64,000 nt of DNA, taken from NCBI GenBank assembly GCA_021108075.1, contig JAIORP010000158.1:5740-69739 (forward strand), in the 5' to 3' direction. The notes below the pieces were generated by a model. That model was not told the DNA's origin and did no database searches. It saw nothing but the letters and a program-made list of their open reading frames with translations. Positions 12,767 to 52,580 of the stretch are shown one piece after another (the stretch's first letter is position 1; each line of letters opens with the position of its first letter). The position numbers and the translations under genes are program-made. This stretch comes from Candidatus Omnitrophota bacterium (GTDB lineage Bacteria > Omnitrophota > Gorgyraeia > Zapsychrales > Zapsychraceae).

Positions 12767-12853
12767 GCCTGATGCTCATCGTTTTAAAAACAATTTTCAT
12801 GAATGAAAAATCATTAGAGATATCAACGACAAAAAATTATAATAAGAAATGAT

Positions 12854-12935
12854 CATACCAATTCCATTAAATAATGACCAAAACCAATTCTTCTTTTCAG
12901 AATTAAGATAGAACAATTCATTAATGGATTTGGTA
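12854..12935. repeat. 82-bp MITE/REP-like palindromic element, copy 1 (orientation A)
   Basis: ataccaattccattaaataatgaccaaaaccaattc...cagaattaagatagaacaattcattaatggatttggtat. About 20-bp TIRs plus an internal hairpin (aattctg..cagaatt). Confidence 0.9.
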
Positions 12936-13021
12936 TCATCTAGCGTTTCAGAAGAACTCCGCATAAAAAAAATATTTTATGCCCTTGCTGTCTATCCTGT
13001 TTTATCATATTATATAAGAAA

Positions 13022-13813
13022 TTGAATCCTTTTTTCCTCTATCTCTCGAGCACACTTATCTGGTCAAATAAGCCAGATCAGTGTGAAAGGCGGACATTTT
13101 TGAGCGTACATTCCTTAAAAAAAGACTTACGAAAATATGCTGACCCCAAAAAAGCAAAAATACTGCAGCGTTTTTTTAAGACTGGCCAAGGAGAATACGG
13201 CGAAGGGGATGTCTTCCTCGGGGTAAAGGTCCCGGATACCCGTCGTGTCGCCAAAAACCATAAGGGAGAACCTCTTGAGGTCATCGACAAACTCATCCAA
13301 TCCGAGATTCATGAAGAACGGTTATTAGCTCTCCTGCTGTTAATAGAAAAATTCAACACGGCAAACCCGATTGAGCGGCAAAAATTCTTTAAATTCTACA
13401 TCACATGTTTCCCCCACATCAACAACTGGGATCTCGTGGACCTCAGTGCTCCCAAAATCGTCGGTCAATACCTGTTCGGCCAGGCTAAAAAAAAACAGCA
13501 ATACCTTATTCAACTCGCACACTCACAAAATTTATGGGAAAAACGCATCGCCATTATTTCCACCGCTTTTTTCATCCAGCAAAACAAATTTGGTTTGACT
13601 CTGGCGATCAGCAAAATTCTTCTGAACGATCAGCATGATCTCATCCACAAAGCCGTGGGCTGGATGTTGCGTGAGGTGGGCAAACGTGATATCCGCGAAG
13701 AAGAAGAATTTCTAAAAAAGCATTATCAAAAAATGCCGCGGACCATGTTGCGCTATGCCATTGAAAAATTCGAAGAGAAAAAAAGACAGGACTATTTAAA
13801 AAACCGGATATAA
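13022..13813 (+). CDS. DNA alkylation repair protein (AlkD/AlkC-like HEAT-repeat DNA glycosylase family)
   Basis: KKAKILQRFFKTGQGEYGEGDVFLGVKVPDTRRVAK is the signature of the DNA_alkylation family (pfam08713). The ORF starts at TTG, and an alternative TTG lies near 13103. Confidence 0.8.
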   Translation: MNPFFLYLSSTLIWSNKPDQCERRTFLSVHSLKKDLRKYADPKKAKILQRFFKTGQGEYGEGDVFLGVKVPDTRRVAKNHKGEPLEVIDKLIQSEIHEERLLALLLLIEKFNTANPIERQKFFKFYITCFPHINNWDLVDLSAPKIVGQYLFGQAKKKQQYLIQLAHSQNLWEKRIAIISTAFFIQQNKFGLTLAISKILLNDQHDLIHKAVGWMLREVGKRDIREEEEFLKKHYQKMPRTMLRYAIEKFEEKKRQDYLKNRI

Positions 13814-13847
13814 AAAAAGGCGCCAACCGTTATCCATCCGCTTTGTC

Positions 13848-13929
13848 ATACCAAATCCATTAATAAATTGTTCTATCTTAATTCTGAAAAGCAGAATTGA
13901 TTTTGGTCATTGTTTAATGGAATTGGTAT
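13848..13929. repeat. 82-bp MITE/REP-like element, copy 2 (orientation B, inverted relative to copy 1)
   Basis: ataccaaatccattaataaattgttctatcttaattctgaaaagcagaattgattttggtcattgtttaatggaattggtat. Confidence 0.9.
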
Positions 13930-14864
13930 CAATATAACTCATATCTGAACAATGTTCTTGTGTCCGGCTGAACGTTCGATTCCTGACTCAGCTCCCGGCT
14001 TTTTTGGCGAATCAACCGCCCCTGACCGACATGTCCGAGCGCTTCGAGACATTGGCCCCAATGCTCATAAACATCAGGGTTATCGATATCAAACTGCAAG
14101 CTGTTCCTCAAATACATAATAGCGTCCTCATATTCTTTCATATTGAACGACGCTTTTCCGAGAAACAAAAAATAGAAGCCTTTTGACGGGTTATTTTTTT
14201 GTAAGGCGTCATTAGCCACATCCATCACACTTTGATATTGCTTCAATTGATAATAGGAAAGAATGACCATCTTATAGGCGGAATCATACGCTTGCTGCAA
14301 TTGATTCACGAAATACATATCAGACTCACGATGGAATTCACGATACAACCGGATATACAAACGCTCGGAGGTAAAAACATAATCTAAGGTCTGTTCCGGA
14401 GAACGGTTATAGGCCTTACGCAGATGGGCGATCGCTAACGGGTAATCTCCTCGATGATACCGGTCCACACCTAAATTATAATGATACCAAAAAAAGTCCG
14501 GCTGCAAGGCCAGGGCCTGAGAATAAGCATCCCGGGCCGCGGAATGCTCTCCCAGCAAGTAGCTGCAATACCCGTACAATCCCATCGCATCCGCCCTTTC
14601 AGGGAACAGGTTGAAAACTTCTTTATAGTACTGCCGGAATTCCTCCAGGCGCGTGACATCCAACGCGACTTGCCCTTTCGACAGGGCCTGCAGATATTCA
14701 TTCGATTCCGGACGCAAGCGGTTAAGGGCTAGAATTTTTGCCTGGTAGACCAGGTCGGGTATATTGATGAAACCGCTTAACAATAGAAACACGAGCAGAC
14801 AAAAAAACCCGAACCGGGTTAATACATACATGATCAGACTATTTTTTCTTTGTTTTACTATCAT
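13929..14864 (-). CDS. membrane-anchored TPR-repeat protein (module 3 partner of the YfhO-like GT-C)
   Basis: N-terminal TM helix followed by TPR repeats. Paralogous to 31019-31966 and 34234-35193 (shared LQPDFFWYHYNLGV and similar motifs). Confidence 0.8.
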   Translation of the reverse strand: MIVKQRKNSLIMYVLTRFGFFCLLVFLLLSGFINIPDLVYQAKILALNRLRPESNEYLQALSKGQVALDVTRLEEFRQYYKEVFNLFPERADAMGLYGYCSYLLGEHSAARDAYSQALALQPDFFWYHYNLGVDRYHRGDYPLAIAHLRKAYNRSPEQTLDYVFTSERLYIRLYREFHRESDMYFVNQLQQAYDSAYKMVILSYYQLKQYQSVMDVANDALQKNNPSKGFYFLFLGKASFNMKEYEDAIMYLRNSLQFDIDNPDVYEHWGQCLEALGHVGQGRLIRQKSRELSQESNVQPDTRTLFRYELY

Positions 14865-14865
14865 G

Positions 14866-17049
14866 TCATAATTTTTCAGGGTTTCTCAAACATTTCACAT
14901 CCGCACAATGCATAGCGATGACCCCGATAAACGTCACAAAAAACAAACCATACAAGGCTACCGGGAAAAAATACTCCCGGAAGGATAAAAAGCGTAAAGT
15001 GATGACATGCTTTCCGGGTGGGATCATAAGACCTTTAAAAGCCATCTGACTTTGAAAAATCGAAATCTGTTTGCCGTCTAAATAGGCCTGCCATTTCTTA
15101 TGAAAGGCATCTGTGTAGACAATAAATTTCTGTTGATCAAAATTTGTTTTAAACAAAATCTGGTCGGCACGATACCGCGTAACTTGAAATTCCGGCAGGG
15201 CGTCTTTGATTTTTAGCGGCGTGTCCGCACATGGTAAAAATTTCGCGTTTTCGATAAAATTCTCCAGCTTCAGTTTTTGGTCAGCAAACAGATTGGTGAC
15301 ATAAGCGATATTGCGGTTCTGCAACAGGGAACGCTTTAACAGCCGAAAGGAACTGTTATTAAACGGCAGGCCCTCAACCTGATCATAAATAATAAATTTT
15401 GTTTTTAAATAATCGCGCCAAAGAATTTGGTCAACATGCTTGATAAACGCATCGACCCCTTTCATAGAGCAATACGGAACATAACTGACCTCCGGCACAT
15501 ACGTCAACTGACGGTTACGGTCTCTTTCATATTCAAAGGATGTTTGATAGGCATCGTAACGGTAGCGCAATGGATGTTTGACTGTCCGTTGAATCAAGAA
15601 AGTGTATGTCTCCATGGAAGGATAAAAACTGGCGAAAAGAATAAAACCATAAACCAAAAACGCCCACACCCCCTCACTCCGGCCGGGCGACGGAACGTTC
15701 CGCCAAATAATCATCAGAAACACAAGGCCACTCATCAAAAGGGTAATCACCGACGGCAGAGTAAGCTGCGATGATTGCGTCAAGACACGCAAAATAAATT
15801 GAACCATAAAAATAATCCAGCAGCTGGCTAATAACTGAATAGCGCGGCCTTTGTTCTTTTGGGTTAAGAACTGGCACCAAATTTCTGAAGCCAAGACAAT
15901 TCCAAGAGGAAGCACAAAAAACCATAAATAAAAATGCAGGTTCCGGTATAATTTGTAATAAAAAATATGCTTGTATAAAAACTCGTAAAGGCTCGTCTGA
16001 GGGGAAACGGACAGGAATAAAACAATGGTCCAGGCAACAAAAAAACATAATCTTTTCGTCGTCTTCACAATAAAACCTAACCCCATAATGATGAATCCCA
16101 ATAATGGGACAAAAAAAGCATTGAGGCGCAGCAGACGATAATCCTTAAAAAATGACGAGAACACAATATGTTCCACCATCCCCCATCTGGAGACCCCTTC
16201 CCGCTGAATTTCAAAAATATTGCGTTGTTCATCCGCCATGATCCGGCCGGGTAATGTGAACTCACTTTGTTTGGTTTCCTGATAAAAGAACCAACCGGGT
16301 AAAAAAGAACTGGCCAGGATAAGGGTCAAAAGAAGGACGAACCATTTATGACGACAGGTAAAGGATCCGAATTGAGCAAGCCAACGAAAAAACCGCTTGG
16401 GATAGAATAGAATGCAACACAATGAAAACGTCGCAATAATATTAAAAGAAAAAAAAGGAATATACGTGCTATTGATCAGCATCATTGTAAAAACTAATCC
16501 CAGCAGTTCCTTCTTACTCCATTCTTTCGACAAACCGATCAGGAAAAAAAAGAACCACAGCAGCGGAACACTGACCAGGATCAAATAAGATTCAAACAAC
16601 TTGATGCTCATTGAAGAAAAAATAAAGAGACAAAAAGCGAGGAAAGAGGAATAGGAACAACGCGTTAACCGTTTGACAATCCCATAAAGCCCCCCGGCGC
16701 CAAGAAAAAAGTAAACAACCAGGAAGAAAAAATAAGCCTTGATGTGTGACAATCCCAGCCACCGTAAGAAAACAATGACCAGGAACACCGGATTATAGCC
16801 ATTGAATCGGCGGAGAAAATATTCATTCGGCACACCAAAATTCCAATGCGGGTCCCAGGACGGGTAGGCTCCTGTCATCAAATGATCGACATAATATTTA
16901 ATATGGTCATAGTAAGAAACAGCATCATTCTGCAGAGAAACTTTGTTCAACAAAAAACTGCTCATGAGGCCTAACCATAAACAGATGGCGACAACACAAA
17001 AAAAGAACCCTATCAAACATTTTTTATTTTGTTTTGGGATTGAGAACAT
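14866..17049 (-). CDS. YfhO-family GT-C membrane glycosyltransferase-like protein
   Basis: 727 aa. About 13 TM helices, then a C-terminal periplasmic domain. N-terminal YfhO-like motif (DAVSYYDHIKYY...YPSWDPHWNFGVP) and C-terminal YfhO motif (Y.D.FH.KW.AYLDGK...AFKGL.IP.GKH). Confidence 0.7.
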   Translation of the reverse strand: MFSIPKQNKKCLIGFFFCVVAICLWLGLMSSFLLNKVSLQNDAVSYYDHIKYYVDHLMTGAYPSWDPHWNFGVPNEYFLRRFNGYNPVFLVIVFLRWLGLSHIKAYFFFLVVYFFLGAGGLYGIVKRLTRCSYSSFLAFCLFIFSSMSIKLFESYLILVSVPLLWFFFFLIGLSKEWSKKELLGLVFTMMLINSTYIPFFSFNIIATFSLCCILFYPKRFFRWLAQFGSFTCRHKWFVLLLTLILASSFLPGWFFYQETKQSEFTLPGRIMADEQRNIFEIQREGVSRWGMVEHIVFSSFFKDYRLLRLNAFFVPLLGFIIMGLGFIVKTTKRLCFFVAWTIVLFLSVSPQTSLYEFLYKHIFYYKLYRNLHFYLWFFVLPLGIVLASEIWCQFLTQKNKGRAIQLLASCWIIFMVQFILRVLTQSSQLTLPSVITLLMSGLVFLMIIWRNVPSPGRSEGVWAFLVYGFILFASFYPSMETYTFLIQRTVKHPLRYRYDAYQTSFEYERDRNRQLTYVPEVSYVPYCSMKGVDAFIKHVDQILWRDYLKTKFIIYDQVEGLPFNNSSFRLLKRSLLQNRNIAYVTNLFADQKLKLENFIENAKFLPCADTPLKIKDALPEFQVTRYRADQILFKTNFDQQKFIVYTDAFHKKWQAYLDGKQISIFQSQMAFKGLMIPPGKHVITLRFLSFREYFFPVALYGLFFVTFIGVIAMHCADVKCLRNPEKL

Positions 17050-17068
17050 ATCCGAATTTTTTTATCTG

Positions 17069-17695
17069 TTACTTTGAGGACAAAATACCTTTTTGATATT
17101 CCTGAATGATCTTCCGCTTCATTTTTTCCTGCTCTTGCGCGATCACCTGCAACCGCAATTGCTGCTGAGTCACTTGCATCACGATGATCTTACGTTGATC
17201 CATCAAGGCCAGTTCTAACACCTTTTTAACAATTTTCTGGAAGAGGGGGTCCTGATACAAAGCTTGTAGATCCTGGTCAACTTTAGACTGGATATGTTGT
17301 TGGACAAGATTGGAATCGATGCCTTCTTCCAACTCTAATAAGGCTTTGTTTGTGGTGGATTCAAAAATATCCAAGGCCAATTCCCGGGTTGCCGGCTGGT
17401 TAAAAACCTGCCAGGCCGCTTGCTGTATCGCCTGAAAAGCTAACTGAGGGAATAAATCAATCTTATTATTCTGAATGGTCCGGCGGATCACTTCTCCTGA
17501 CTTTTTGATAACCGTGTTGACCACGACCTGCTGAACATAGCCCTCGATCATCGTCCGTTTGCGTTCTTTTTCCTGGTCCACTTCTGACTGCGCCGGCGAC
17601 GACATATAAACCCCATCATACGCCGCGCGTGATGGAACAGGCAGTACCAGGCATAAAAACAAACTCATCATCATAACAACTTTTTGTCTACTCAA
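17069..17695 (-). CDS. secreted coiled-coil protein, unknown function
   Basis: Signal peptide (MSLFLCLVLPVPSRA), Q/E-rich coiled-coil. Start overlaps the upstream gene by 8 nt, which suggests an operon. Confidence 0.5.
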   Translation of the reverse strand: MSRQKVVMMMSLFLCLVLPVPSRAAYDGVYMSSPAQSEVDQEKERKRTMIEGYVQQVVVNTVIKKSGEVIRRTIQNNKIDLFPQLAFQAIQQAAWQVFNQPATRELALDIFESTTNKALLELEEGIDSNLVQQHIQSKVDQDLQALYQDPLFQKIVKKVLELALMDQRKIIVMQVTQQQLRLQVIAQEQEKMKRKIIQEYQKGILSSK

Positions 17696-18371
17696 GAATC
17701 CGCTCTCCTTTCAATATTTCCGGTAATTTTCGGGCATCAATACGCAAACCGCCATCATGTTCGATCTTGATTGTATATAAGTACCCCGGAACAAACCTGG
17801 TGCCCGGGGCTTCTATCTGCGCGTTCTTAATGCCGACTTGCCCGGCCCTGGAGGCATCTAAGGCGTAAACCCAAAACTCATGCCAAAACTGATGTTCCAA
17901 AGGGTTCTCGATTACTGACATTTTATATCCCGCGGGAATAGTCTGTAAAGGGGTTATCTCAAACTCTTCTGTTTGAGCGCCATCCAGCATAAAGACTTTC
18001 CAAAAAAGAAAAACGCTGCGCCCTTTAAATAGATCCCCGCGCTTAATAAAACGATCATCAAACCGGACAACAAGGGATTGAAACTGAATGATATTGCCGG
18101 AAAAAGTAAAATATTTCGGTTCTAATGGTTGGTTGGAAACGTCGTACTCTAAAAACTTAATCGTTGTTACTGTTTTCTGTCTGTCCTGATGATATTTAAC
18201 ATTTGTGACCAAAACTTCCGCTGTCCGGGAATCCGATTCCAATCGGCTGATGATCGTCTTGTAAAATTCCTCCCGAAAGAGATAACGTTTGTATCCCACA
18301 TATCCCGCCCCACCGATTAATCCGGCGCAAACAAGACCGGCCACAACTTTTACGATTGTTACTCTTTTCAT
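17688..18371 (-). CDS. membrane-anchored periplasmic protein, unknown function
   Basis: N-terminal TM anchor (VVAGLVCAGLIGGAGYVGY). No known motifs. Confidence 0.5.
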   Translation of the reverse strand: MKRVTIVKVVAGLVCAGLIGGAGYVGYKRYLFREEFYKTIISRLESDSRTAEVLVTNVKYHQDRQKTVTTIKFLEYDVSNQPLEPKYFTFSGNIIQFQSLVVRFDDRFIKRGDLFKGRSVFLFWKVFMLDGAQTEEFEITPLQTIPAGYKMSVIENPLEHQFWHEFWVYALDASRAGQVGIKNAQIEAPGTRFVPGYLYTIKIEHDGGLRIDARKLPEILKGERILE

Positions 18372-18373
18372 GG

Positions 18374-18727
18374 CTATGATTCCATTCTGTTTTGAAACTT
18401 GTGGTACAACCGATAGTAATTCTTATCATCCGGTGATCCCGTCCGGTAAATTTTTATCATATACGGACCGCGACGGGCTTTCAGCGCCGGATCAAATTTA
18501 AAAACGGCTAGACCGCCCCTATCATCGCTCAGAATAGATTCAGCAGGCACGACTGTTGAAGAATTGACGCCTGTTACAGGTATCCAGACGGATTGCACAT
18601 CATCCAGCTGATACAGATACGCCTTCAACCCATCGCCTGGCTGCCCAACCTTATAAATACGCGCGGCAAATGTTGTGAAGTCGGATGTCTGCTCCACCGT
18701 CCCTAGAAATCCCCGATACTGATTCAT
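18374..18727 (-). CDS. hypothetical protein
   Basis: 117-aa ORF whose stop lies 2 nt before the start of the next gene. No family recognised. Confidence 0.35.
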   Translation of the reverse strand: MNQYRGFLGTVEQTSDFTTFAARIYKVGQPGDGLKAYLYQLDDVQSVWIPVTGVNSSTVVPAESILSDDRGGLAVFKFDPALKARRGPYMIKIYRTGSPDDKNYYRLYHKFQNRMES

Positions 18728-19233
18728 CCCGTGTACCGTTCCGATATTGTAAATATCATTCCGCAGTGTGAAAATCTGATCGTCGGACCATTCTGAAAAC
18801 GTTGCAAATCAATAATCCACGCCCGGCTGAGTGTCTCTTGTTCATAGGGCTTATGCCCTAGGACCAAATACCGGTATGTTAAAATTTCTTCCTCATGCGC
18901 CCAATACCGGCTTGATGCCAATGTCTTGAATGATGCCACCGCATAATCTTTGAGGCGATTATCGATAATTAATTTATTTAAAAAAGGATCTTTATCAAAT
19001 TGCTGATAGTCGCTATGGGCCGCGATATAAATAGAATCCTTGGTTATCGGAGGAATATACGCATAGCCTTTTTTCACCTTAAAAATTGTCTGCATGGGCA
19101 CAAAGAGCACATGGGCCTTGACCCAATTGTTCAATTGTCCGACTAAATGCAGTTGGTGCGGATGTTGGGGATAGGTGTAAAGCTTTTTAATCCCCAATTC
19201 CTGAATTTTCCCGGATATAAATGTGGTCGCCAT
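18724..19233 (-). CDS. hypothetical protein
   Basis: 169-aa ORF. Its start overlaps the end of the 441-aa upstream gene, so the true start is probably an internal M near 19095. It overlaps the next ORF by 4 nt (ATGA). Confidence 0.35.
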   Translation of the reverse strand: MATTFISGKIQELGIKKLYTYPQHPHQLHLVGQLNNWVKAHVLFVPMQTIFKVKKGYAYIPPITKDSIYIAAHSDYQQFDKDPFLNKLIIDNRLKDYAVASFKTLASSRYWAHEEEILTYRYLVLGHKPYEQETLSRAWIIDLQRFQNGPTIRFSHCGMIFTISERYTG

Positions 19234-20468
19234 GCGCGACGGATAAATGTCTGAGGCAAACGCGGTAAAACTGCTAAAAAGATGACAAGGCCATACACCC
19301 CCCGCCTGGCTGAGGCACGTAAAGAAGACAGGTGGTGCTCCCAGCGGTAAGCCGTATAACCGACGAGCAGAATGATACCGACCAAAGACGTAAAATAATT
19401 GGCGCCATATTGGGCGACCTTTTTAACATTCGCTAAGATGGGTGAAGACAAACACAACAGAACCATTAACATTGCCAGGACATAGACCTTTGGGGTCTGA
19501 TCTGTTTGTGCCGTCCTGAGCGCATCCACAAACAATAACAACAGGCACAGACAAAAGACCGGAAACAGGACCGGCATAATCAAAAAAAAGTATTTGATGA
19601 TCCACAACCAACCGCCATGTGATGTTGCGATATTGCCTGGAATCCATTGCTGCAGATTGGGTTGATTATAATAAAAATGGTTATATCCCACGCTCACTTC
19701 AACGTATTCCCAAAAGCTGATGATATTATGCCAGATATGCGGCAACGTTAACCAGATTAAGACAACCACACCGCCAACAGTTAAGAGACCGCAGTCGAAA
19801 GAGATCGCTTGAACATCCCTTTGGATCTTCCTTTCAACACAGTCATCAGACCGCAAAAAATAATGCCAAACAAGCAGGCCAAAGACATAGGGCACATATA
19901 AAGCCGACACGGAAGAAGAAAACAGAGCCGCGCACAAAGCCGCCCCGGAAAGAATTTTCAAGACCCAGCCAACCCGGGTTTGATGGGCGCATAAAAAACA
20001 TAGCACGCTAATAAGAAAAAACATGAGGCCCAGGGGTTGATGTTTCGCGAACAGGATATACAAATAGGGCCAGAAACTGGTCGTAAATAAAAAATAACAC
20101 AACAGGCCGATCGTGTCATTGAAAATGCGCCGGGTAATTTCAAAGACAAGCACGGATGACACGCCCACTGCGGCCGAACAAACCAGAATAAACGGCCTCA
20201 GGGTGGTCTCATCACACATGATTCGCTGGAGCAGCGAGGCTAAATATATAAAAAACTCTTTGCCGTGCAGCCAACGGACGCGAGGTTGATCAAATGATTC
20301 ATGCATCTCTGAAATAAAAGTGAGGTCCTTTAGTCGTACGGCCGCGTCAAAATAATACGCTTTTGTATCGGTCGGCCAGAACTGAATATCCCAAATAAAC
20401 ATAATAATAGTAATATTTATAAGTAACGTAATGGCGATAACAGCCCATGACAATTGTTTGTTATTCAT
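19143..20468 (-). CDS. polytopic membrane protein, possible ArnT/PMT-like GT-C glycosyltransferase
   Basis: 441 aa, about 11 TM helices. The first loop has the acidic motif WPTDTKAYYFDAA, reminiscent of the GT-C DE/DD motif. First gene of the operon. Confidence 0.5.
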   Translation of the reverse strand: MNNKQLSWAVIAITLLINITIIMFIWDIQFWPTDTKAYYFDAAVRLKDLTFISEMHESFDQPRVRWLHGKEFFIYLASLLQRIMCDETTLRPFILVCSAAVGVSSVLVFEITRRIFNDTIGLLCYFLFTTSFWPYLYILFAKHQPLGLMFFLISVLCFLCAHQTRVGWVLKILSGAALCAALFSSSVSALYVPYVFGLLVWHYFLRSDDCVERKIQRDVQAISFDCGLLTVGGVVVLIWLTLPHIWHNIISFWEYVEVSVGYNHFYYNQPNLQQWIPGNIATSHGGWLWIIKYFFLIMPVLFPVFCLCLLLLFVDALRTAQTDQTPKVYVLAMLMVLLCLSSPILANVKKVAQYGANYFTSLVGIILLVGYTAYRWEHHLSSLRASARRGVYGLVIFLAVLPRLPQTFIRRAWRPHLYPGKFRNWGLKSFTPIPNIRTNCI

Positions 20469-20617
20469 CTCGTCCTTCTCTAAGGTCGCATACGGCTAAT
20501 CATTCCCTTGCATTATACGTGAAAAAAGAATACCGATTGTATTTTTTTTTATTAAATATTCCGACATTCACCTTTTTCAAAATTTTCATTTACGGAATCA
20601 CCAATCATCCGTAAAAT

Positions 20618-22024
20618 ATGAAGACATTTATAGGAATTTTCATGAAAAAACAATATCCCATCCTATCATTTATTATACTGCTTTGCTTTTTGGCCAGCAG
20701 TTTTCTTTATCACGGCATTCAAGCCGCTGATCAGGCCTCTGAAGGAACACTGTCCAAAAACGTTGATATCGCACAAGCCGGTCAACAAAAACAAATCCGA
20801 GAGATTTTCCCGCAAGCCCACAGCATACACATCAACCGTAAAGACCGGATCCACTATATCATTTATGACAAACAAAGTATGTTTTTAGGAATCGCCTTTT
20901 ATACTAAAGACATTGCACCGGACATCTACGGCTACGGCGGCCATGTCAATCTGCTGGTGGGGATAACCGCGCAAGGCACATTAACGTCCATCAAACTGAT
21001 CAACCATCTTGAAACGCCGGCCTATGTGGAAGGTAAATTGCTCCCCTTCCTTCAACAGTTCAGCGGACGGTCCATCCAGGACAAAATTGTCCTGGACCAA
21101 AACGTCAACGCCATCACGCACGCGACGGTCAGCAGCACGGCCGTGGTTAATGCCTTAAATCAAAGCATCGCCAAAATGTCCACCCTTAGGGTCGTTCAAG
21201 AAAAACTGATACCTCCGCGCTCCTCCTTTCCGGCCAAAGACATTATCCTCACTCTTTTACTTTTTATGTTAGCCATAATCAGTGTCCTGACATCCCAACC
21301 AATCTTACGCTGGTTCACGCTGTTAAGCAGTTTGCTCTATTTGGGCATCCTGAAAGGTTCCATGATATCGGCGTCGAATATAGCGGTCCTTTTTTCCGGA
21401 CGCTGGCCATTGTTCCAAACAAATCCGCACTGGTACCTGCTGACATTTTTTTCCATTCTTTGCGCGCCTTATTTCGGTATGGTGTTTTGCGGATACCTCT
21501 GCCCTTTTGCGGGAACGCAGGAAATCCTTCATGCCTTGACAAAAAAGATCCGCAAGCAAAGAACGGACACCATTTCCCCTGCGATTGAAAACAAAGCCCG
21601 GTTTATCAAATACGCGGTTCTGATGATCGCGGTCAGTGCGGGCATTCTGACGGGCCATCCCAATATCGCCATCATCGAACCCTTCATTACTTTGTTTACC
21701 TTCAACGGATCACACGCCGCCTGGATTTTATTAGGGCTGATGTTGCTGCTCTCCATGATATATTACCGCTTTTGGTGCCGGTTTTTTTGCCCGGTGGGGG
21801 CCTTCCTCGGTCTCATTGCCCAAAAAAGTTTATGGGGTATCACCTTAAAAAAATATCCGTGCAGCTATTGTCTGAAGTGTGAACAGATCTGTCCGACTCG
21901 GGCGATCAATTTTCAGAATAAAGATCACTTGCGTGTTGATACCCCGGAATGTGTGCTCTGCTTGGAATGCGTCAACAACTGTCCGGATAGAACATTAGGA
22001 GTCCGTCGCTATGGCAAGAAATAA
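20618..22024 (+). CDS. NosR/NapH-like membrane redox protein (FMN-binding domain plus 4Fe-4S clusters)
   Basis: N-terminal signal/TM, then an FMN_bind domain with the flavinylation motif (HATVSSTAVVNAL). TM helices carry CX3CP motifs (FCGYLCPF, CRFFCPVG). C-terminal 2x[4Fe-4S] ferredoxin motifs (CSYCLKCEQICP, CVLCLECVNNCP). Confidence 0.7.
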   Translation: MKTFIGIFMKKQYPILSFIILLCFLASSFLYHGIQAADQASEGTLSKNVDIAQAGQQKQIREIFPQAHSIHINRKDRIHYIIYDKQSMFLGIAFYTKDIAPDIYGYGGHVNLLVGITAQGTLTSIKLINHLETPAYVEGKLLPFLQQFSGRSIQDKIVLDQNVNAITHATVSSTAVVNALNQSIAKMSTLRVVQEKLIPPRSSFPAKDIILTLLLFMLAIISVLTSQPILRWFTLLSSLLYLGILKGSMISASNIAVLFSGRWPLFQTNPHWYLLTFFSILCAPYFGMVFCGYLCPFAGTQEILHALTKKIRKQRTDTISPAIENKARFIKYAVLMIAVSAGILTGHPNIAIIEPFITLFTFNGSHAAWILLGLMLLLSMIYYRFWCRFFCPVGAFLGLIAQKSLWGITLKKYPCSYCLKCEQICPTRAINFQNKDHLRVDTPECVLCLECVNNCPDRTLGVRRYGKK

Positions 22025-22216
22025 TGGGCTGGCCGTCACGGTCCTGGCCATAACCGGTTTGCTTGTTTGTTGGATCATGACCGAGAATATCCTCGCGATG
22101 AAGCGGGCAAAGACTTTTTCCCCGACAACCGACCGCTCACAGAGAGTTCAAGAACCTCTTCAAAAACAAACCATTAAACCGTATAATGCCTTATATTGGA
22201 GAGTTGCCGATGAATA

Positions 22217-22322
22217 ATACCAAATCCATTAAATAATTGCCAAAATTTCTCATCGTTTTTTGCGAACGCTTTTACGCAAATAGCAATGAGAAATCAGATG
22301 AATTATTTATTGGATTTGGTAT
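22217..22322. repeat. 106-bp variant element with the same TIRs as the 82-bp family but an unrelated core
   Basis: ataccaaatccattaaataattg[ccaaaatttctcatcg...atgagaaatcagat]gaattatttattggatttggtat. The core has its own nested hairpins. Confidence 0.8.
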
Positions 22323-22372
22323 AATTTAAACAATATCATGCCCGTTATCAAAAGGCACCAAGGAAAAATGTC

Positions 22373-23347
22373 ATGAACACGATTATCTGCGATTTATGCC
22401 CGAAACATTGCCGCCTGCGTCCAGGCGACCGGGGGAATTGCCGTGTCCGGACCAATCAGGACGGGAAATTACAAACGCTTGTTTATGGAAATCCCTGCGC
22501 GGTCCATGTTGACCCGATTGAAAAGAAACCCCTGTTTCATTTTTTACCGACGTCAAAGGCCTTCTCGATCGCGACCGCGGGGTGCAATCTGCATTGCAAA
22601 TATTGTCAAAACTGGCAAATTTCTCAACGCCCTCCGGAGGAAACGAATAATTATGATATGCCGCCAGAGATTGTGGTTGAAAAAGCCATTGAAACAGATT
22701 GCCAAAGTATTGCCTACACGTACACTGACCCGGTTATTTTCTATGAGTACGCGTTTGACACATCCAAGGCCGCCCATCAAAAGGGCATCCGCAATGTGCT
22801 GGTCACAGCCGCTTATATCGAACAAAAGCCGCTCAAGGATCTCTGCAAGTATACCGACGCGGCCAATGTGGACTTAAAAGGCATCACCGATGAATTTTAC
22901 CGCAAGATGTCAGACGCGACACTGCAGCCTGTCCTGGACGCCATCCTCACCATGATCAAGTTGGGGGTGTGGGTGGAATTAACCAATTTGATTGTGCCGA
23001 CCTGGAATGATCAAGAAAAGGATATCCGGCAATTATGCCGCTGGGTTTACAAAAACGCCGGACCGGACGTGCCAATGCATTTTTCAAGATTTTGGCCGCA
23101 ACATAAATTAAAAAATTTACCGCCAACACCGCTTAAGGTGATGAGCCGCGCCTGGGAGATCGCCAAGGAAGAAGGCCTTCATTTCCCGTATGTGGGCAAT
23201 GTGCCCGGTCATCCGGGGAATAACACCTATTGCCCCCATGACGGCAAAATCATTATCCGCCGGCGGGGATACATGATCACTGAAAACCATGTGATCAACG
23301 GACATTGCACGTTTTGTAAGAATTCAATCCCCGGGGTTTGGTCTTAG
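22373..23347 (+). CDS. AmmeMemoRadiSam-system radical SAM enzyme
   Basis: N-terminal Cys-rich region (CDLCPKHCRLRPGDRGNCRVR) and CNLHCKYCQNWQIS radical-SAM motif, which is the PFL-activase-like TIGR04337 architecture. Confidence 0.8.
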   Translation: MNTIICDLCPKHCRLRPGDRGNCRVRTNQDGKLQTLVYGNPCAVHVDPIEKKPLFHFLPTSKAFSIATAGCNLHCKYCQNWQISQRPPEETNNYDMPPEIVVEKAIETDCQSIAYTYTDPVIFYEYAFDTSKAAHQKGIRNVLVTAAYIEQKPLKDLCKYTDAANVDLKGITDEFYRKMSDATLQPVLDAILTMIKLGVWVELTNLIVPTWNDQEKDIRQLCRWVYKNAGPDVPMHFSRFWPQHKLKNLPPTPLKVMSRAWEIAKEEGLHFPYVGNVPGHPGNNTYCPHDGKIIIRRRGYMITENHVINGHCTFCKNSIPGVWS

Positions 23348-31018: not shown

Positions 31019-31966
31019 TTATTCGAACCGTTTCATTTTATAATAGATCCCCTCATCAACGATATAAAAAAATAATGTTTTTTTCTGGTATGGCTTGAAG
31101 GAAAATATATCTGTCTGGATATCTGGAAGTTTGGAAAGATCCAGCTCCTTTTGCTGCATCTCGAATTGCAGCATGATCTCCGCCAGATAGACCTTTGATG
31201 GAGAAAAGTTGGGGTTCGCCCGCAAACTGTCCTTCAAGAACGTCACACCCTTTTCATATGCTTTTAACTCCAGACATGCCAGGGCCGCCAGATAATAAAA
31301 GACCTCTTGTTTGTCAGGGACTTTCCCGGCACCGATGACAGCGGCACGCAATAGCGAATGAAAATCATTCCGCGCAGCATAACTGCTCATAAGATATAGA
31401 TAACCATCGACATATGCCTTCTGAAGCATCAGCGGCATATTGTCCGGATCAACCGGCAGATATTCATTCTGCTGATTGATCGACGTCAATTTCCCCCCTC
31501 GCTGAAAGATATCATTGCACCGCAGATCAACATTTCCTTTGAAATACGATATGGCACTCTGGTAATCTTTCTGTTCATACGCCAGTACCCCTAAATTATA
31601 ATTGATACCAAAAGCATCCTTTTTTTGCTGATACGCCCGCTCAAACATTTTATGGGCGAGCTCCGGTTCGTCTAAGGCCACATAACACCAGCCCATGTTG
31701 TTGTAGCTGATCGGGGCTTGATCAAAAATTTTAATAATACAGGAGTAATAACGTAATGCTGCCCTTAAACGTCTTTGCTGAAAAGGAGCCTGCCCCATAA
31801 CAGAATGATTCAAGTACATCATTTCTGAGTTCAAATGATCCAATGTTCGAAAGACAATCCGGTTGTGGTCCAGCAAAAAAACGCACAGCAATAAAAGCGC
31901 GCCATAGATGCTGACATACCGCCCCAGTATAAGCCCCATCATTTTTTTCAGGCTGCTTATTTTCAT
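31019..31966 (-). CDS. membrane-anchored TPR-repeat protein (module 2)
   Basis: N-terminal TM plus TPRs. Paralog of 13929-14864 and 34234-35193 (GINYNLGVLAYEQKDYQSAISYF). Starts 1 nt after the YfhO-like stop. Confidence 0.8.
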   Translation of the reverse strand: MKISSLKKMMGLILGRYVSIYGALLLLCVFLLDHNRIVFRTLDHLNSEMMYLNHSVMGQAPFQQRRLRAALRYYSCIIKIFDQAPISYNNMGWCYVALDEPELAHKMFERAYQQKKDAFGINYNLGVLAYEQKDYQSAISYFKGNVDLRCNDIFQRGGKLTSINQQNEYLPVDPDNMPLMLQKAYVDGYLYLMSSYAARNDFHSLLRAAVIGAGKVPDKQEVFYYLAALACLELKAYEKGVTFLKDSLRANPNFSPSKVYLAEIMLQFEMQQKELDLSKLPDIQTDIFSFKPYQKKTLFFYIVDEGIYYKMKRFE

Positions 31967-34198
31967 TTAATGGAACACTCCCCGGCTTTTCCCGTTCAGT
32001 CCACGCCCGAACATCTTCTTGAGTCTAATGAAATAACAACTGATCAGCAAAAGAAAAAATGCTAAAAAATATATCATCAACAATTTATAAAAGGTTTCCA
32101 TCAAGCGGCTTTCATAACGAAGACGCAACCGATGCTTTCCAGCCGGGACCCAAACACCTTTAAAAGCCACATTCGCCCGATAAATGGTTTCCGGCTTTCC
32201 GTCCACGGTTAAATGCCATTTGCGGTGATAACTGTCATTATAAACGAATAATTGTGGAAAAGGCACATCCAACAACAGTTCGATTTCGTTTAAATCAAAA
32301 CGGCGGACAGTCAAAGTTTGACCATCGGCCAAGATGACCCGTGGAGGCTTTAACGGCGCGGGCGGTCCCGCCTTTGTCATTTCAGTTTGATCATCCCCAC
32401 AAACAACAAGGGCTTTCTTCGACCGCAAGGATAAGACCTCAGCTATATGCTGTTTATCATCAAAGGTTTCATCAACGCATTGAAAATCATCATATAAAAT
32501 AAATTTATTTTTAACGTAGGACTGCAATAACTCCCTGGGCATCTGTTCATGCAGGAAGTACGACCATCTCATCCCATAGTAATTCTCCTTGAAAAATCCT
32601 GACGTATCCTGCAGGGCCCCAAAGGCTTCATAGGGTTTTAACACTTCCCTTTGATAATCCGGCCTTTCAAATACAAATACCGGAGGGTCATCGTTGGTCC
32701 AGTTATCTTGCTGACTGTCTGTGAATTTATAATGCGCGGTGTTTTGCCTAAAGGATTGAAAGACACTGACAGGCTGTATCATAATGATAATAAAAAATCC
32801 GGCCATCAAGCCGTAACGTACGATTGGTTTTGAATGGTAACGCCCCCACAGGATTAAGAATATGACATTGAGCAATAAACTTAAGTAAGAAATGAAACCC
32901 ACATTCCGGATTTGATAAAAAAACACTCCCAACGCAGAATGTATCACAATGAGCAGCAGACCGATTATTTTTTTGGACTTCTGTTGTGGGAATGAGTACA
33001 TCCACCAGGCTAAGACGTCAACAAAGAATAACAGTGCGGCCAACCAGGCAAACCAGACGAGATAGTGCAAATTCCGAAAATACCTGAAGAAAAATATATA
33101 TTTAAATAAAAACAGAAACAACGGCGTAAAATCCGCAAGGCTGATAAGGAAAATCAAGAAAGCAATGGATATAAAAATCAATCCCTTCTTCCGGACAGGA
33201 ACGATCAGGCCACAGGCTAAAATCAACCAAAAAAATAAAGGAGCATAAAAAAGACCTAAATCCATCCCATCTAAATCGGCCCACAACCCTCTGATACTGT
33301 TCGGTCCGATCAGACTGCTCAGGCTGATGGTCGCTAAAGTCATCTCCAGGGGGTCATCCCCCGCTGTCCGCCAGTTCACGACATAATCCCCATTCCGGGC
33401 TTCCAAAAACCAACGGAAGCCCGGCAACAAAGATAACAGGATAGAAACAATGGCCAGCGCAAAAATGATCTTATTTTTTCCGGCGAATGTCCTCAATTCT
33501 TTCAAACAAAGCCCGACGCGCCGGGGGTAGAACGCGCACAAACAAACCAGAATGATCCCCAGGCTGGTCAAGAAATGAAAAGGCATATAAGTCACATTTA
33601 TGATCATCATCGCCAAGGTCAGCCCGAGCCAATCAACAATTTTAAACTCCTTAAAAAAAGACACAAAAAAATAATAAAACCATATCGCGGGAACAATGAT
33701 CAGCACCAGCAAACAATCGTTAAAAATATTGCTGCCCAAATTAGACAATAACACGAGACAGAACGCGCAATAAGCCAACCAGAACTTCTTATACAAACAC
33801 TTCACCAAAAAGTAAAAACCAAAGGCGCCCAAAATAAAATAGAAGAGATAAAAGCAAGCGTATGCCGTAGAAAAATTCGCGCCCACGCCCCGCATCAGAC
33901 TGATGATATAGGTCAATGGGTTGCACTCTCCGATCATGCGCACGCCAAAATCATCTGGTCTGCCCCAGGCATGATAGGGATCCCATAAAGGATACACCCA
34001 ACGGCCGATATGATGAAAAAAATACTCCGTATAACGGTAACAGACCTGGGCATCAACGATAAGTTTGATGTGACCTTTTATTAAATGGGAGATTGAATGC
34101 AGCCATATAAAGACCGGAAGGATAAAAAGAAAAAGATAAGCAGCTGACCGGATGAACACATCGAATAACGAAAAATTTTGATTATTATTTTTTGGCAT
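31967..34198 (-). CDS. YfhO-family GT-C membrane glycosyltransferase-like protein (module 2)
   Basis: 743 aa. N-terminal YPLWDPYHAWGRP motif, multi-TM core, C-terminal YNDSYHRKWHLTVDGK...AFKGVWVPAGKH block. Paralogous to 14866-17049 and 35190-37451. Confidence 0.7.
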   Translation of the reverse strand: MPKNNNQNFSLFDVFIRSAAYLFLFILPVFIWLHSISHLIKGHIKLIVDAQVCYRYTEYFFHHIGRWVYPLWDPYHAWGRPDDFGVRMIGECNPLTYIISLMRGVGANFSTAYACFYLFYFILGAFGFYFLVKCLYKKFWLAYCAFCLVLLSNLGSNIFNDCLLVLIIVPAIWFYYFFVSFFKEFKIVDWLGLTLAMMIINVTYMPFHFLTSLGIILVCLCAFYPRRVGLCLKELRTFAGKNKIIFALAIVSILLSLLPGFRWFLEARNGDYVVNWRTAGDDPLEMTLATISLSSLIGPNSIRGLWADLDGMDLGLFYAPLFFWLILACGLIVPVRKKGLIFISIAFLIFLISLADFTPLFLFLFKYIFFFRYFRNLHYLVWFAWLAALLFFVDVLAWWMYSFPQQKSKKIIGLLLIVIHSALGVFFYQIRNVGFISYLSLLLNVIFLILWGRYHSKPIVRYGLMAGFFIIIMIQPVSVFQSFRQNTAHYKFTDSQQDNWTNDDPPVFVFERPDYQREVLKPYEAFGALQDTSGFFKENYYGMRWSYFLHEQMPRELLQSYVKNKFILYDDFQCVDETFDDKQHIAEVLSLRSKKALVVCGDDQTEMTKAGPPAPLKPPRVILADGQTLTVRRFDLNEIELLLDVPFPQLFVYNDSYHRKWHLTVDGKPETIYRANVAFKGVWVPAGKHRLRLRYESRLMETFYKLLMIYFLAFFLLLISCYFIRLKKMFGRGLNGKSRGVFH

Positions 34199-34233
34199 GG
34201 GATTTGATGACGGTATTCATCTTATACAAGCAA

Positions 34234-35193
34234 TCAATATGGTGCCAGATCGATGTTATGGTATTTTTCAACGCGAGAGCCAACGCTCTGTTGATGTATT
34301 TTCGACTGTTCTAAAAAATTATGGGCCACCTGCGGTTTACCGACGGCCTGCATGATCAGGCTGGAGTAATACAATGCTTCATAATGATACGGATCATATC
34401 TTAGGGCTGTACGAAAAGATTGTAGCGCCAATTTATAACTCTTCACTTTATATTGAGCGAGTCCCAGATAAAAATGAAAGAACGCGTAATCATCGATATC
34501 TTCCCGCAGGGCCGAATTCGCGTAACCGACCATCTCTGAAATCTCATCCATCGCATATAAACTCATAACAACAACCTTGTAATCATTTTCATAGCCGAAC
34601 CTCATCTGGGCCAAAACATATTCAGGGCTTAAATGCGCACCGGATATCAAAAAAGGAACATATATCCGCCTGGAATTTAACGTGTAACGTAAGGTCTCCC
34701 TTTTCTTTGCGTCCAGGGCCTTGACCATAAATTGAAAAGCAGCAGGATATTCTTTCGATTTAAAATGAATAACACCCAAATTATAATTGAACCAAAAGAA
34801 ATCCGGTTTTAAATCACTTGCTTTGTTATACAACTTTTTCGATTCGCCGACCTGCCCTTGCAGATAACGGCAGTAGGCCAACATACCATATGAGTCAGGC
34901 CGGTTGGGCAAGGCTTCAATGATTTCTTCCAGATAGTGAACGTAACGATCCAGCTCTTTGGGCTCAGGGGTTTCTTTTGATTCAGTCGCACGCACGAGCA
35001 ACTCCCAGCTTGCGGGCATAAGCCGGCTTAAAGTAACCAGCTTGGCTTTTAAAACGACATAGTCCCACGGGATAAAAGTCTTTGAGATCACATAAAAAAG
35101 GAGGCAAAGCACAATCACGCGATTGAACACAAAATTGATCCATTGACGTCCACCGGAGAAACATTTTTTCTGTTTAAATGGTTGTTTTGTCAT
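34234..35193 (-). CDS. membrane-anchored TPR-repeat protein (module 1)
   Basis: N-terminal TM plus TPRs (LKPDFFWFNYNLGVIHF). Its ATG overlaps the YfhO-like stop (ATGA), which indicates translational coupling. Confidence 0.8.
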   Translation of the reverse strand: MTKQPFKQKKCFSGGRQWINFVFNRVIVLCLLFYVISKTFIPWDYVVLKAKLVTLSRLMPASWELLVRATESKETPEPKELDRYVHYLEEIIEALPNRPDSYGMLAYCRYLQGQVGESKKLYNKASDLKPDFFWFNYNLGVIHFKSKEYPAAFQFMVKALDAKKRETLRYTLNSRRIYVPFLISGAHLSPEYVLAQMRFGYENDYKVVVMSLYAMDEISEMVGYANSALREDIDDYAFFHFYLGLAQYKVKSYKLALQSFRTALRYDPYHYEALYYSSLIMQAVGKPQVAHNFLEQSKIHQQSVGSRVEKYHNIDLAPY

Positions 35194-39574: not shown

Positions 39575-39643
39575 TAAATAATGACCAAAACCAATTCTGC
39601 TTTTCAGAATTAAGATAGAACAATTTATTAATGGATTTGGTAT
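39562..39643. repeat. 82-bp MITE/REP-like element, copy 3 (orientation A)
   Basis: ataccaattccattaaataatgaccaaaaccaattctgcttttcagaattaagatagaacaatttattaatggatttggtat. Confidence 0.9.
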
Positions 39644-39670
39644 GATTACAAATATCGACCGTGTCTATTT

Positions 39671-39754
39671 ATACCCATTCCGATTCTGCTTTTCCCGACG
39701 CTTAAGCAAAAATATCAGAATTGAAATAAAACAATTAACTAATAAATTTGGTAT
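39671..39754. repeat. degenerate, deleted copy of the 104-bp insertion variant of the element
   Basis: atacccattccgattctgcttttcccgacgcttaagcaaaaatatcagaattgaaataaaacaattaactaataaatttggtat. Shares the extra segment (cgacg.tt.agc.a.aatat) seen in the 62190-62293 copy. Confidence 0.65.
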
Positions 39755-40812
39755 TACCATTTAAAAGTAATACTGGTTCTCTCACAGCGTGAACAAACAG
39801 AAACCGCTCCCCGCCCTTTTTCATTCAATAGCATACGCATTTTCTGCGCGGAATGTCCATTCCAAATTTCTAATAAATTTGTTACACCAATCTTAAACGT
39901 CCCATAACGGGTTGTATCGCTCCAAACAGCACATTCGCAGCAGGCTAAAATATCGCCATTCCAATCCAATTGCATGGCCTTCCATATCCAATCGCACGAC
40001 CCCTTTAACGGCAGAACGGCCTGACTCAATGCCGGCTCCTGATCCTCTAATCCTCCTTTGGGATTACCGGGCCGAACATTTAACATAATTCCTAATGGGC
40101 GACAAAAGTCCTGGACCAACTTCAATTCATGCTGATTGTAATTATAGAGGATATAGTCAATCATAATGACGGTGCCGAAACGCCCTTTTTTATTTTTCTC
40201 CACCAATAAACGGATATTTGATTTAATCTTTTCAATATCACCATGCCGGACCTGAACATTATAAATATCTTTCGAAAATCCGCTTATGGCTATCTTTACA
40301 AAATCTAATCCCGCGTCCAATAATTCTTCGATCTTCCGCTCTGTTAATAATGAGCCATTGGTCGCGATCATGGTTGCCACACCTTGATCGGTTGCGGATT
40401 GGATGACCCGAGCCAAGTCCTTGTATATAAGCGGTTCCCCATTGGTGTATAAAACGGCTATAAGCAAATAATCCTTTAATTGCCGAATGATATCTAAGGC
40501 CATCTCAAGCGGCATTTTTCCTTTAGGGATTGTTCCCGTCCGACCTTTAGGATTCACATCAGGAATCACTCCTCTGGCATCACGGCAAAACAAACAATTC
40601 GCATTGCACTCATTGGATAAGTCCAGACTCAACATGTAGGGACCTTGCGCGGAGATCGGATTTTTTCTCCAATAAGCGAAATAACAATCCAACATATTTC
40701 TTATTTTGCGGATATTAATTTTCTTCTGCTGAATAACCCGCTGTAAAATTTTGAGGTGAAGTAAGATGTATTGATTGCGCATAGATATTTTTTTGGGGCT
40801 GTGAGAACCCAT
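39754..40812 (-). CDS. radical SAM/SPASM-domain protein
   Basis: LSLDLSNECNANCLFCRD (CxxxCxxC) and a C-terminal Cys-rich SPASM-like region (CDWIW...ILACCECAVW...CSRC). The real start is probably the internal M at about 40695, which avoids overlap with the upstream GT2 gene. Confidence 0.8.
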   Translation of the reverse strand: MGSHSPKKISMRNQYILLHLKILQRVIQQKKINIRKIRNMLDCYFAYWRKNPISAQGPYMLSLDLSNECNANCLFCRDARGVIPDVNPKGRTGTIPKGKMPLEMALDIIRQLKDYLLIAVLYTNGEPLIYKDLARVIQSATDQGVATMIATNGSLLTERKIEELLDAGLDFVKIAISGFSKDIYNVQVRHGDIEKIKSNIRLLVEKNKKGRFGTVIMIDYILYNYNQHELKLVQDFCRPLGIMLNVRPGNPKGGLEDQEPALSQAVLPLKGSCDWIWKAMQLDWNGDILACCECAVWSDTTRYGTFKIGVTNLLEIWNGHSAQKMRMLLNEKGRGAVSVCSRCERTSITFKW

Positions 40813-41752: not shown

Positions 41753-41876
41753 AAGCTTATTATTATATATATTATTAAAGGACTAAAACATTATAATAAA
41801 AATTATAAACATTCTCATCATATTTCTTTAAGAAAACCTCTCCTGATTCCCTTTGACGGTAAAGATCAAAAAAAAA

Positions 41877-43962: not shown

Positions 43963-43983
43963 CTCGTTCCCTTCCTTATCATT

Positions 43984-44065
43984 ATACCAATTCCATTAAA
44001 TAATGACCAAAACCAATTCTGCTTTTCAGAATTAAGATAGAACAATTTATTAATGGATTTGGTAT
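43984..44065. repeat. 82-bp MITE/REP-like element, copy 4 (orientation A)
   Basis: Identical family sequence. Its 3' end (ggtat|TA) supplies or abuts the TAA stop of gene 44065-44811. Confidence 0.9.
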
Positions 44066-51615: not shown

Positions 51616-51650
51616 TATCGGCTCATCCATACAAAAAAGAACAAACGGGA

Positions 51651-52563: not shown

Positions 52564-52580
52564 TATCATGGACAAATAAT

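Follow-up and report, generated by a model that had tools for sequence, protein, structure and literature searches.

Introduction

A run of seven closely spaced open reading frames (ORFs) on the minus strand of a Candidatus Omnitrophota genome raises the question whether it encodes one dedicated glycosylation machine or several units that merely lie side by side. The run occupies positions 13929-20468 of a stretch of 64,000 nucleotides (nt) from contig JAIORP010000158.1 (GenBank assembly GCA_021108075.1; contig positions 5,740 to 69,739), referred to below as the window. An original prediction, made from the sequence alone, described it as a seven-gene operon in which a YfhO-like protein and a tetratricopeptide repeat (TPR) protein are joined by a GT-C-like membrane protein and four uncharacterised proteins. 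All seven ORFs are present at 13929-20468, but they represent five genes, three of the ORFs being pieces of a single glycosyltransferase gene, GT-C710. The cluster consists of three separable units, namely GT-C710, the pair p227 and p208, and the pair Y727 and TPR311. Together with a polyprenyl-phosphate glycosyltransferase encoded elsewhere in the window, the GT-C and TPR components probably belong to a system for glycosylation in the periplasm.

Structure of the gene cluster

In the direction of transcription the cluster comprises GT-C710 (18374-20468; 710 amino acids [aa]), p227 (17688-18371; 227 aa), p208 (17069-17695), Y727 (14866-17049; 727 aa) and TPR311 (13929-14864), all on the minus strand. 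The GT-C710 stop codon and the p227 start codon are separated by a gap of 2 nt that had been taken for an overlap. The overlap of 8 nt proposed for p227 and p208 exists if p208 starts with TTG, and is replaced by a gap of 19 nt with the ATG at 17668, which yields a p208 protein of 199 aa, the length called in three other contigs of the same organism (L003, L005 and L006). Y727 follows p208 after 19 nt, and TPR311 follows Y727 after 1 nt, or after 34 nt with the ATG at 14831 (300 aa). The ATGA at 18724-18727, which had been counted among the overlapping junctions, is not a junction between genes. Beside the five co-directional genes just one non-coding gap exceeds 35 nt, the divergent intergenic region of 149 nt at 20469-20617, which is the presumed location of the promoter; on the TPR311 side the cluster is bordered by a convergent DNA-alkylation-repair gene (13022-13813). 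Scans for consensus promoters and terminators inside the cluster did not score above shuffled sequence, and the promoter scan was uninformative for 20469-20617, so that co-transcription is deduced from gene geometry. The five-gene arrangement is a lineage-specific juxtaposition of the three units, because the neighbourhoods of p227 in other genomes are heterogeneous, the 20 Y loci with sufficient upstream sequence lack p227 and p208, and the detectable GT-C710 homologs precede glycine-cleavage genes and not p227.

A processing artefact splits the GT-C710 gene

A BLAST comparison of 20,684 nt of the window with contig NODE_51 from the ENA (L001) yielded 0 mismatches and exactly two gaps, each of 19 nt. 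The sequence AGATCGGAATTAATGGATA is present in L001 and absent from the window at the junction 19265|19264, and AGATCGGAAACAATTATCC is likewise present in L001 and absent at the junction 18789|18788. Both missing 19-mers start with AGATCGGAA, the nine bases with which the Illumina adapter begins. Within about 36.5 kb compared, AGATCGGAA occurs at these two places only, and nowhere in the window; over another 22,232 nt (window positions 21967-44198), which likewise lack such a site, window and ENA contig agree at 100% identity. Six contigs of the same organism were found by exact-sequence look-up of the 227-aa protein, several of which reach the upstream gene. Both 19-mers also occur in L002, in L003, which comes from the Logan assembly of a different run, and in L004, a variant contig with 12 single-nucleotide polymorphisms, and the gene preceding p227 encodes a single PMT_2 protein, with 710 aa in L001, L002 and L004 and a 688-aa call in L003.

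Restoring both 19-mers fuses the ORFs of 441 aa (19143-20468), 169 aa (18724-19233) and 117 aa (18374-18727) into one gene of 710 aa. Each loss of 19 nt shifts the frame by one, which explains why three ORFs appear in three frames, with an apparent overlap of 91 nt (19143-19233) and the apparent ATGA overlap. Three homologs (P0129-P0131; 39-43% identity) are colinear with GT-C710 through both junctions without interruption, and the deleted codons align with residues present in these homologs at 40% identity. In GenBank the fragments have entries of their own, among them MCD4781247.1, a "glycosyltransferase family 39 protein" of 441 aa, and MCD4781245.1, a hypothetical protein of 117 aa; the whole protein is encoded on the primary assembly contig of 73,484 nt, and the GenBank contig has 69,862 nt. 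The region 18374-20468 is thus, with very high confidence, one gene that was split by adapter screening after assembly. The suspicion that 18374-18727 and 18724-19233 form one frameshifted gene proved right, and the same gene also takes in the 441-aa ORF. As a consequence, only p227 and p208 are left of the four proteins originally listed as uncharacterised, the 169- and 117-aa ORFs being the C-terminal extracytoplasmic domain of GT-C710.

In the GenBank metagenome-assembled genome (MAG; locus tags K8S27_*, K8S27_119xx among them), every AGATCGGAA site and the following 10 nt appear to be deleted. A third excision was considered behind an ORF overlap of 98 nt at 40715-40812 and was rejected; this stretch is identical to the primary assembly, and the overlap therefore reflects an over-long ORF start only.

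Hydropathy analysis predicts about 8-11 transmembrane (TM) helices in the first ~420 aa of GT-C710, followed by a soluble C-terminal domain of ~290 aa. The assignment of this first gene to the GT-C enzymes was borne out by the Pfam model PMT_2 (cut-off 26.1 bits), which gave the 441-aa fragment 30.3 bits and the whole 710-aa protein 29.4 bits, and agrees with the family 39 (GT39) name given by NCBI. The PMT_2 match, the GT39 name, the multi-pass membrane part and the outer C-terminal domain are shared with the GT39/GT83 PMT_2 enzymes (PMT, ArnT and bacterial GT-C enzymes of the GtlB/GacL type). GT-C710 differs from them in that its C-terminal domain has no sequence match in Pfam or the PDB and only three detectable homologs, and in that nothing conserved ties it to the other genes of its cluster. 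The 169- and 117-aa ORFs searched on their own gave no match in Pfam or NCBIfam.

The Y727/TPR311 pair is a conserved unit

The hydropathy profile of Y727 indicates 12 TM segments, 11 of them between residues 11 and 448 and the last at 694-712; the ~240 aa in between (450-690) form a soluble region, for which a beta-sandwich was modelled by AlphaFold2 (AF2). This succession of a TM bundle, a large outer domain and a single C-terminal TM helix is the architecture of the YfhO type. The AF2 model (predicted local distance difference test score [pLDDT] 77, predicted template modelling score 0.81) was built from an alignment that took in one unrelated row, the membrane protein Y702. Its matches in a Foldseek search of the PDB were exclusively GT-C glycosyltransferases (probability 0.9-1.0), with STT3 (E 1e-5) first and ArnT, PglB, AglB, DPY19, EmbA/B, Pmt4 and AftD thereafter. 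Across the family, the Pfam model YfhO (PF09586) matched 7 of 11 members at E<0.01 (best E 2.6e-8). Residue D42, located in the first extracytoplasmic loop just after TM1, showed no variation in two alignments (A2, A6), and its conservation in a third (A5) was 90% or more; A2 had also taken in Y702, later found to be unrelated to Y727 and its paralogs. The conserved acidic residue of this loop is the catalytic base in ArnT, PglB and PMT. Fold, topology and the family matches together support the original description of the 727-aa protein as YfhO-like, and Y727 is accordingly classified as a predicted YfhO-like glycosyltransferase with GT-C fold.

The last gene of the cluster, TPR311, matches the Pfam models TPR_1, TPR_2, TPR_11 and related ones, as had been expected from its sequence. 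Two paralogous modules of the same kind are encoded further along the minus strand, one consisting of Y753 (35190-37451) and TPR319 (34234-35193) and the other of Y743 (31967-34198) and TPR315 (31019-31966), both TPR proteins being recognised by Pfam; within these modules (31019-37451) the stop and start codons overlap or abut. Y727, Y743 and Y753 are 24-31% identical to each other and clearly paralogous (phmmer E 1e-64 to 1e-120); Y743 obtained 24.8 bits with the Pfam YfhO model and Y753 no match. The window thus holds exactly three Y and TPR modules, in line with the designation of the cluster at 13929-20468 as the third one. Y702 (37466-39574, minus strand; 702 aa, about nine TM helices), located directly upstream of Y753, was rejected as a fourth paralog since phmmer showed no detectable relation to the three Y proteins. 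It has no Pfam or NCBIfam match and no detectable similarity to GT-C710, a relative of it adjoins a Y gene in locus L109, and it may be another, unrecognised membrane glycosyltransferase.

A word-index homolog search with Y727 was saturated by membrane-protein words and returned only 8 matches. A metagenome scan with an alignment of 8 Y sequences identified 36 loci, among which 24 Y genes were near full length and 21 of these were followed by at least 300 nt of sequence. A homolog of the TPR partner lay immediately downstream of Y in 20 of the 21, usually with overlapping stop and start codons. In the remaining locus (L111:9989-12646; 885 aa) the two proteins are fused in frame, and Pfam finds YfhO and TPR in one ORF: residues 5-655 match Y, residues 692-853 match residues 19-180 of TPR311 (E 4.5e-30), and both the last TM helix of Y and the TPR protein's own TM helix are kept at the joint. 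TPR311 itself has a TM segment at residues 10-28. It is inferred to be membrane-anchored with its TPR domain facing the periplasm, because lysine and arginine residues precede this anchor and the two TM helices at the joint of the fusion protein would bring that domain back to the outer side. For 11 Y/TPR pairs, paralogs within one genome included, similarity between Y proteins predicted similarity between their TPR partners (Mantel r = 0.90, p = 2e-4), and one further locus (L094) carries two to three pairs within 13 kb. By these data the pair of Y727 and TPR311 is the unit of the cluster that is conserved across relatives, and such pairs duplicate and diverge as units.

The putative envelope proteins p227 and p208

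The p227 protein appears to be single-pass: its N-terminal TM helix runs on as one long helix up to residue 44 or so, and a beta-rich domain comes after it (AF2 model, mean pLDDT 84.9). A search returned 2418 homologs at E<=1e-3, which were typically 55-65% identical and nearly all labelled Omnitrophota; an alignment of 28 sequences contained 53 invariant columns, and a relative is encoded in 369 species genomes of the GTDB. An exhaustive profile search collected 550 representative clusters at E<=1e-3, longer and more distant relatives included. Six of the latter (P0158, P0215, P0221, P0245, P0275 and P0278) have 250-330 aa; in them an extended coiled coil separates the conserved domain from the TM helix, and the tails are often rich in proline and serine. 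The family thus probably reaches beyond the tight Omnitrophota core. No sequence match to p227 was found in Pfam, NCBIfam or the PDB with either profile, nor a Foldseek match in the PDB at E<=1e-3; its description as a protein without recognisable motif therefore stands, unlike that of the 169- and 117-aa ORFs, which are not distinct proteins.

Two classifications of p227 were tried and rejected. An assignment to the pilins or archaellins was not tenable given a Foldseek probability of at most 0.3 and the lack of a class III signal motif. Weak DivIC matches occurred in 8 of 57 distant relatives (best E 1e-4), and FtsB and PilN appeared in the PDB profile search at E of about 0.1; this similarity is confined to the TM and coiled-coil part, and p227 was not placed in any of these families. 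Its likeness to bitopic proteins of the FtsB/DivIC type is one of architecture only, with an N-terminal TM helix preceding a helical or coiled-coil segment, whereas its beta-rich domain of ~170 aa has no counterpart there, no divisome genes lie nearby, and the matches were not significant for p227 itself.

The second protein, p208, is small and predicted to be secreted; near its N-terminus it carries a hydrophobic signal-like segment (residues 4-22), and it has only sub-threshold Pfam matches. Homologs of p208 adjoin p227 in 6 of the 80 species genomes in which the neighbourhood of p227 was inspected, and in the short contig L128. The 80 neighbourhoods are heterogeneous, most of them without a connection to glycosylation, and include genes for DUF3352, TatD, PolX, a TPR-M50 peptidase, PilZ, ABC-F, AcrB, Ysc84 and response regulators, the commonest upstream neighbour being DUF3352 (9 of 80 loci). 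One Omnitrophota clade (L007-L009, L021, L022 and L033; for example L007:6709-14630) shows a run of genes for a DUF3352 protein (775 aa), a CMD-domain protein, p227, a protein with TPR and Peptidase_M50 domains, a PilZ protein and PolX. As judged from these comparisons, p227 represents an orphan family found throughout the Omnitrophota, with p208 as its downstream partner in one subclade. Most likely the two are co-expressed envelope proteins and not obligatory parts of a transferase.

Donor supply

The likely supplier of the glycosyl donor is a GtrB-type family 2 glycosyltransferase (GT2) acting on polyprenyl phosphate, encoded at 40715-41752 on the minus strand, with E 1.2e-68 to Synechocystis GtrB (5EKP) and 1.5e-31 to ArnC. 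It also matches the NCBIfam model PgfS (E 2.7e-69) with 233.7 bits, below the model cut-off of 500 bits. In at least seven other loci a homologous GT2 gene is found no more than a few kb from a Y gene, one representative giving E 3e-72 to GtrB. Among the scanned ORFs of the window, the only small ones with several TM segments are a MauE/DoxX protein and a 122-aa protein without family. At 39754-42968 (minus strand), at the head of the paralogous Y/TPR cluster, the GT2 gene stands together with genes for a radical S-adenosylmethionine (SAM)/SPASM protein and a protein with a GH18 domain; a radical SAM/SPASM enzyme is unusual within a glycosylation cluster.

The combination of a GT-A sugar synthase that uses the polyprenyl phosphate C55-P, a flippase and a GT-C enzyme is an established scheme, the GT-C component in Firmicutes being YfhO (PMC8035078). 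The CsbB/GtcA/YfhO systems of Bacillus, Staphylococcus and Listeria share with Y727 the GT-C fold, the YfhO topology and the C-terminal match to Pfam YfhO, and a GT2 of the GtrB/CsbB type is likewise present in the window and beside relatives of Y elsewhere. The differences are the score of Y727 below the Pfam gathering threshold, the nearly obligatory, co-diverging and separately encoded TPR partner, the presence of three paralogous pairs within 25 kb, the lack of a GtrA flippase among the genes found nearby, and the host, an Omnitrophota bacterium, which we take to be diderm and without teichoic acids.

Proposed mechanism and alternative explanations

According to the reading proposed here, a GtrB-type GT2 such as that at 40715-41752 would attach a sugar to polyprenyl phosphate on the cytoplasmic side of the membrane, and the lipid-linked sugar would then be flipped to the periplasmic side. 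There, each GT-C enzyme would transfer the sugar by means of an acidic residue conserved in the first outer loop (predicted to be D42 in Y727), while the periplasm-facing TPR subunit would select or present the acceptor. If the TPR subunit selects the acceptor, each of the paralogous Y/TPR pairs would serve a different acceptor of the cell envelope. This pathway, combined with the division of the cluster into GT-C710, p227/p208 and Y727/TPR311, is considered likely to be correct.

Several observations weigh against it. The match of Y727 itself to Pfam YfhO (21.7 bits, E 7.8e-5) is below the gathering threshold of 28.5 bits and covers profile positions 756-824 only, that is, the C-terminal ~70 residues of the protein. 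The GT2 gene is located beside the paralogous cluster, at a distance of 23 kb from the Y727 cluster, and no GtrA/GtcA flippase was matched among the scanned ORFs of the window; it may be encoded elsewhere in the genome. The correlation between Y and TPR similarities can arise from co-duplication alone, and the fusion in L111, although of the Rosetta-stone type, is possibly due to an indel error in the contig. The adapter match covers only 9 of the 19 nt of each stretch removed from GT-C710. With respect to the separation of the units, p227 directly adjoins a Y-TPR pair in four loci (L012, L048, L067 and L072), a pair is found within 10 kb of p227 in 5 of the 80 species loci, and contig L128 repeats the order p227-p208-Y at 59%, 32% and 42% identity. 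A loose functional link between p227 and Y/TPR in some lineages is thus possible; the occurrence of p227 beside Y-TPR in at least two gene orders is suggestive of it but weak as evidence.

The nature of the acceptor is the point at which the strongest alternative departs from the proposed pathway. A comparison with TMTC1-4 and TMEM260, which perform protein O-mannosylation in eukaryotes, and with TfpW, which arabinosylates Pseudomonas pilin, may marginally favour a protein acceptor over a glycan. In these enzymes a GT-C membrane module is fused to TPR repeats that face the lumen or the outside of the cell, the side predicted for the TPR partner of Y, and the expansion of Y/TPR paralogs is compatible with a specialisation for acceptor classes. 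The differences are that Y and its TPR partner are encoded separately, the latter with a TM anchor of its own, a fusion being seen in just one of 21 relatives (L111), and that the catalytic module of Y727 is YfhO-like instead of PMT_2 or DUF1736.

A glycan acceptor is nearly as likely. We regard it as quite conceivable, if short of an even chance, that the same enzymology modifies a glycan or lipid, such as an exopolysaccharide, lipopolysaccharide or another envelope polymer, with the TPR protein as a polymer-handling scaffold, for which BcsC, PgaA and AlgK provide examples. In 17 of the 36 metagenomic loci (L106, L107, L109, L110, L112-L117, L119, L120, L124, L126 and L130-L132; for example L107:8569-13025) the gene directly upstream of Y encodes a PilZ-domain protein (~120 aa), and the frequent order there is GtrB-type GT2, PilZ, Y, TPR and a ~610-aa membrane protein with DUF6798. 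PilZ is a receptor domain for cyclic di-GMP (c-di-GMP) that typically controls exopolysaccharide synthesis, and its position suggests c-di-GMP control of a glycosylation module or of polymer modification in one subclade. The GH18 gene beside the paralogous cluster points in the same direction, as does the fact that teichoic acid polymers are the substrates of every YfhO enzyme characterised so far (PMC8035078). On the other hand, no PilZ gene adjoins the Y/TPR modules of the window, and no genes for polysaccharide synthases or exporters are present in the cluster at 13929-20468. Furthermore, as far as is known, where GT-C enzymes of established acceptor carry TPR domains, as TMTC, TMEM260 and TfpW do, the substrates are proteins.

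At the opposite end of the range of acceptors, the Y/TPR pairs might be two-subunit bacterial counterparts of TMTC and TMEM260, that is, protein O-glycosyltransferases specific for a domain or substrate class, whose co-evolving TPR subunit dictates the target, with the paralogs as a specificity panel and, in the lineage of the window, p227/p208 as a client or assembly factor of one such enzyme. In this far-reaching form the idea seems rather unlikely.

The model from which this analysis started, in which the whole cluster encodes a single dedicated machine for glycosylation with p227 and p208 as acceptors, chaperones or new subunits of YfhO/TPR or GT39, is still more doubtful. It is consistent with the five co-directional genes separated by gaps of at most 34 nt, with the four loci in which p227 directly follows a Y-TPR pair and the recurrence of p227-p208-Y in L128, and with the presence of Y-TPR within 10 kb in 2 of 5 independently ascertained p208 loci versus 3 of ~74 others. 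However, two of its four supposedly uncharacterised components are artefactual fragments, 75 of 80 p227 loci lack Y/TPR within 10 kb, and neither p227 nor p208 was found in any of the 20 YfhO-like loci whose upstream sequence extends over 1.5 kb or more, so that the expected conservation of these genes beside YfhO/TPR is largely not observed. Homologs of GT-C710 are not located beside p227 either, and the identity of p227 across the phylum (~60%, versus 24-31% among the Y paralogs) fits an independent core role. Finally, a true pseudogene, with real frameshifts in the GT39 gene and the 169- and 117-aa ORFs as decaying remnants or new small genes, would agree with the split in the GenBank record and the fragments called as proteins by the PGAP pipeline, but is extremely improbable in view of two deletions of exactly 19 nt that start exactly at the only AGATCGGAA sites in about 36.5 kb, the absence of any other difference between the window and the primary assembly, the intact gene in three further assemblies (one with 12 single-nucleotide polymorphisms), and the match of the deleted codons to residues kept in homologs at 40% identity.

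Other features of the window

Opposite the cluster, the plus-strand region 20618-23347 encodes a NosR/NapH-like FMN-binding polyferredoxin membrane protein of 468 aa and a radical SAM enzyme of the AmmeMemoRadiSam system (TIGR04337, E 1e-114), the surroundings of which showed none of its AmmeMemo partner genes. An intergenic repeat of ~82 nt occurs in seven copies in both orientations with 95-98% identity (12842-12945, 13839-13942, 39557-39645, 43976-44065, 51534-51619, 52482-52569 and 63334-63418). Its ends are palindromic (ATACCAAWTCCATTAAT ... ATTAATGGAWTTGGTAT), and it looks like a miniature inverted-repeat transposable element or a repetitive extragenic palindromic element. The final 14 nt of the TPR311 gene fall within one of the copies, and an inverted pair (104 nt, 87% complementary) brackets the DNA-alkylation-repair gene at 13022-13813. 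Rfam searches gave no match for the repeat or for any other part of the window.

Implications

Silent excision of 19 nt at natural AGATCGGAA sites frameshifts real genes and yields spurious "hypothetical proteins". Other genes of the K8S27_* MAG, and perhaps other MAGs of the same submission, may hide the same frameshifts, and studies of pseudogenes or orphan ORFs based on similarly processed assemblies are exposed to the same error. Within the Omnitrophota, p227 is a candidate core component of the cell envelope, being strongly conserved and distributed across the phylum and having no recognisable fold relative. The Y/TPR pairs may be seen as a split version of the GT-C-plus-TPR design of TMTC, TMEM260 and TfpW, and thus offer a testable two-gene unit that points to the periplasmic glycosylation of several acceptors in a phylum without a cultured model.

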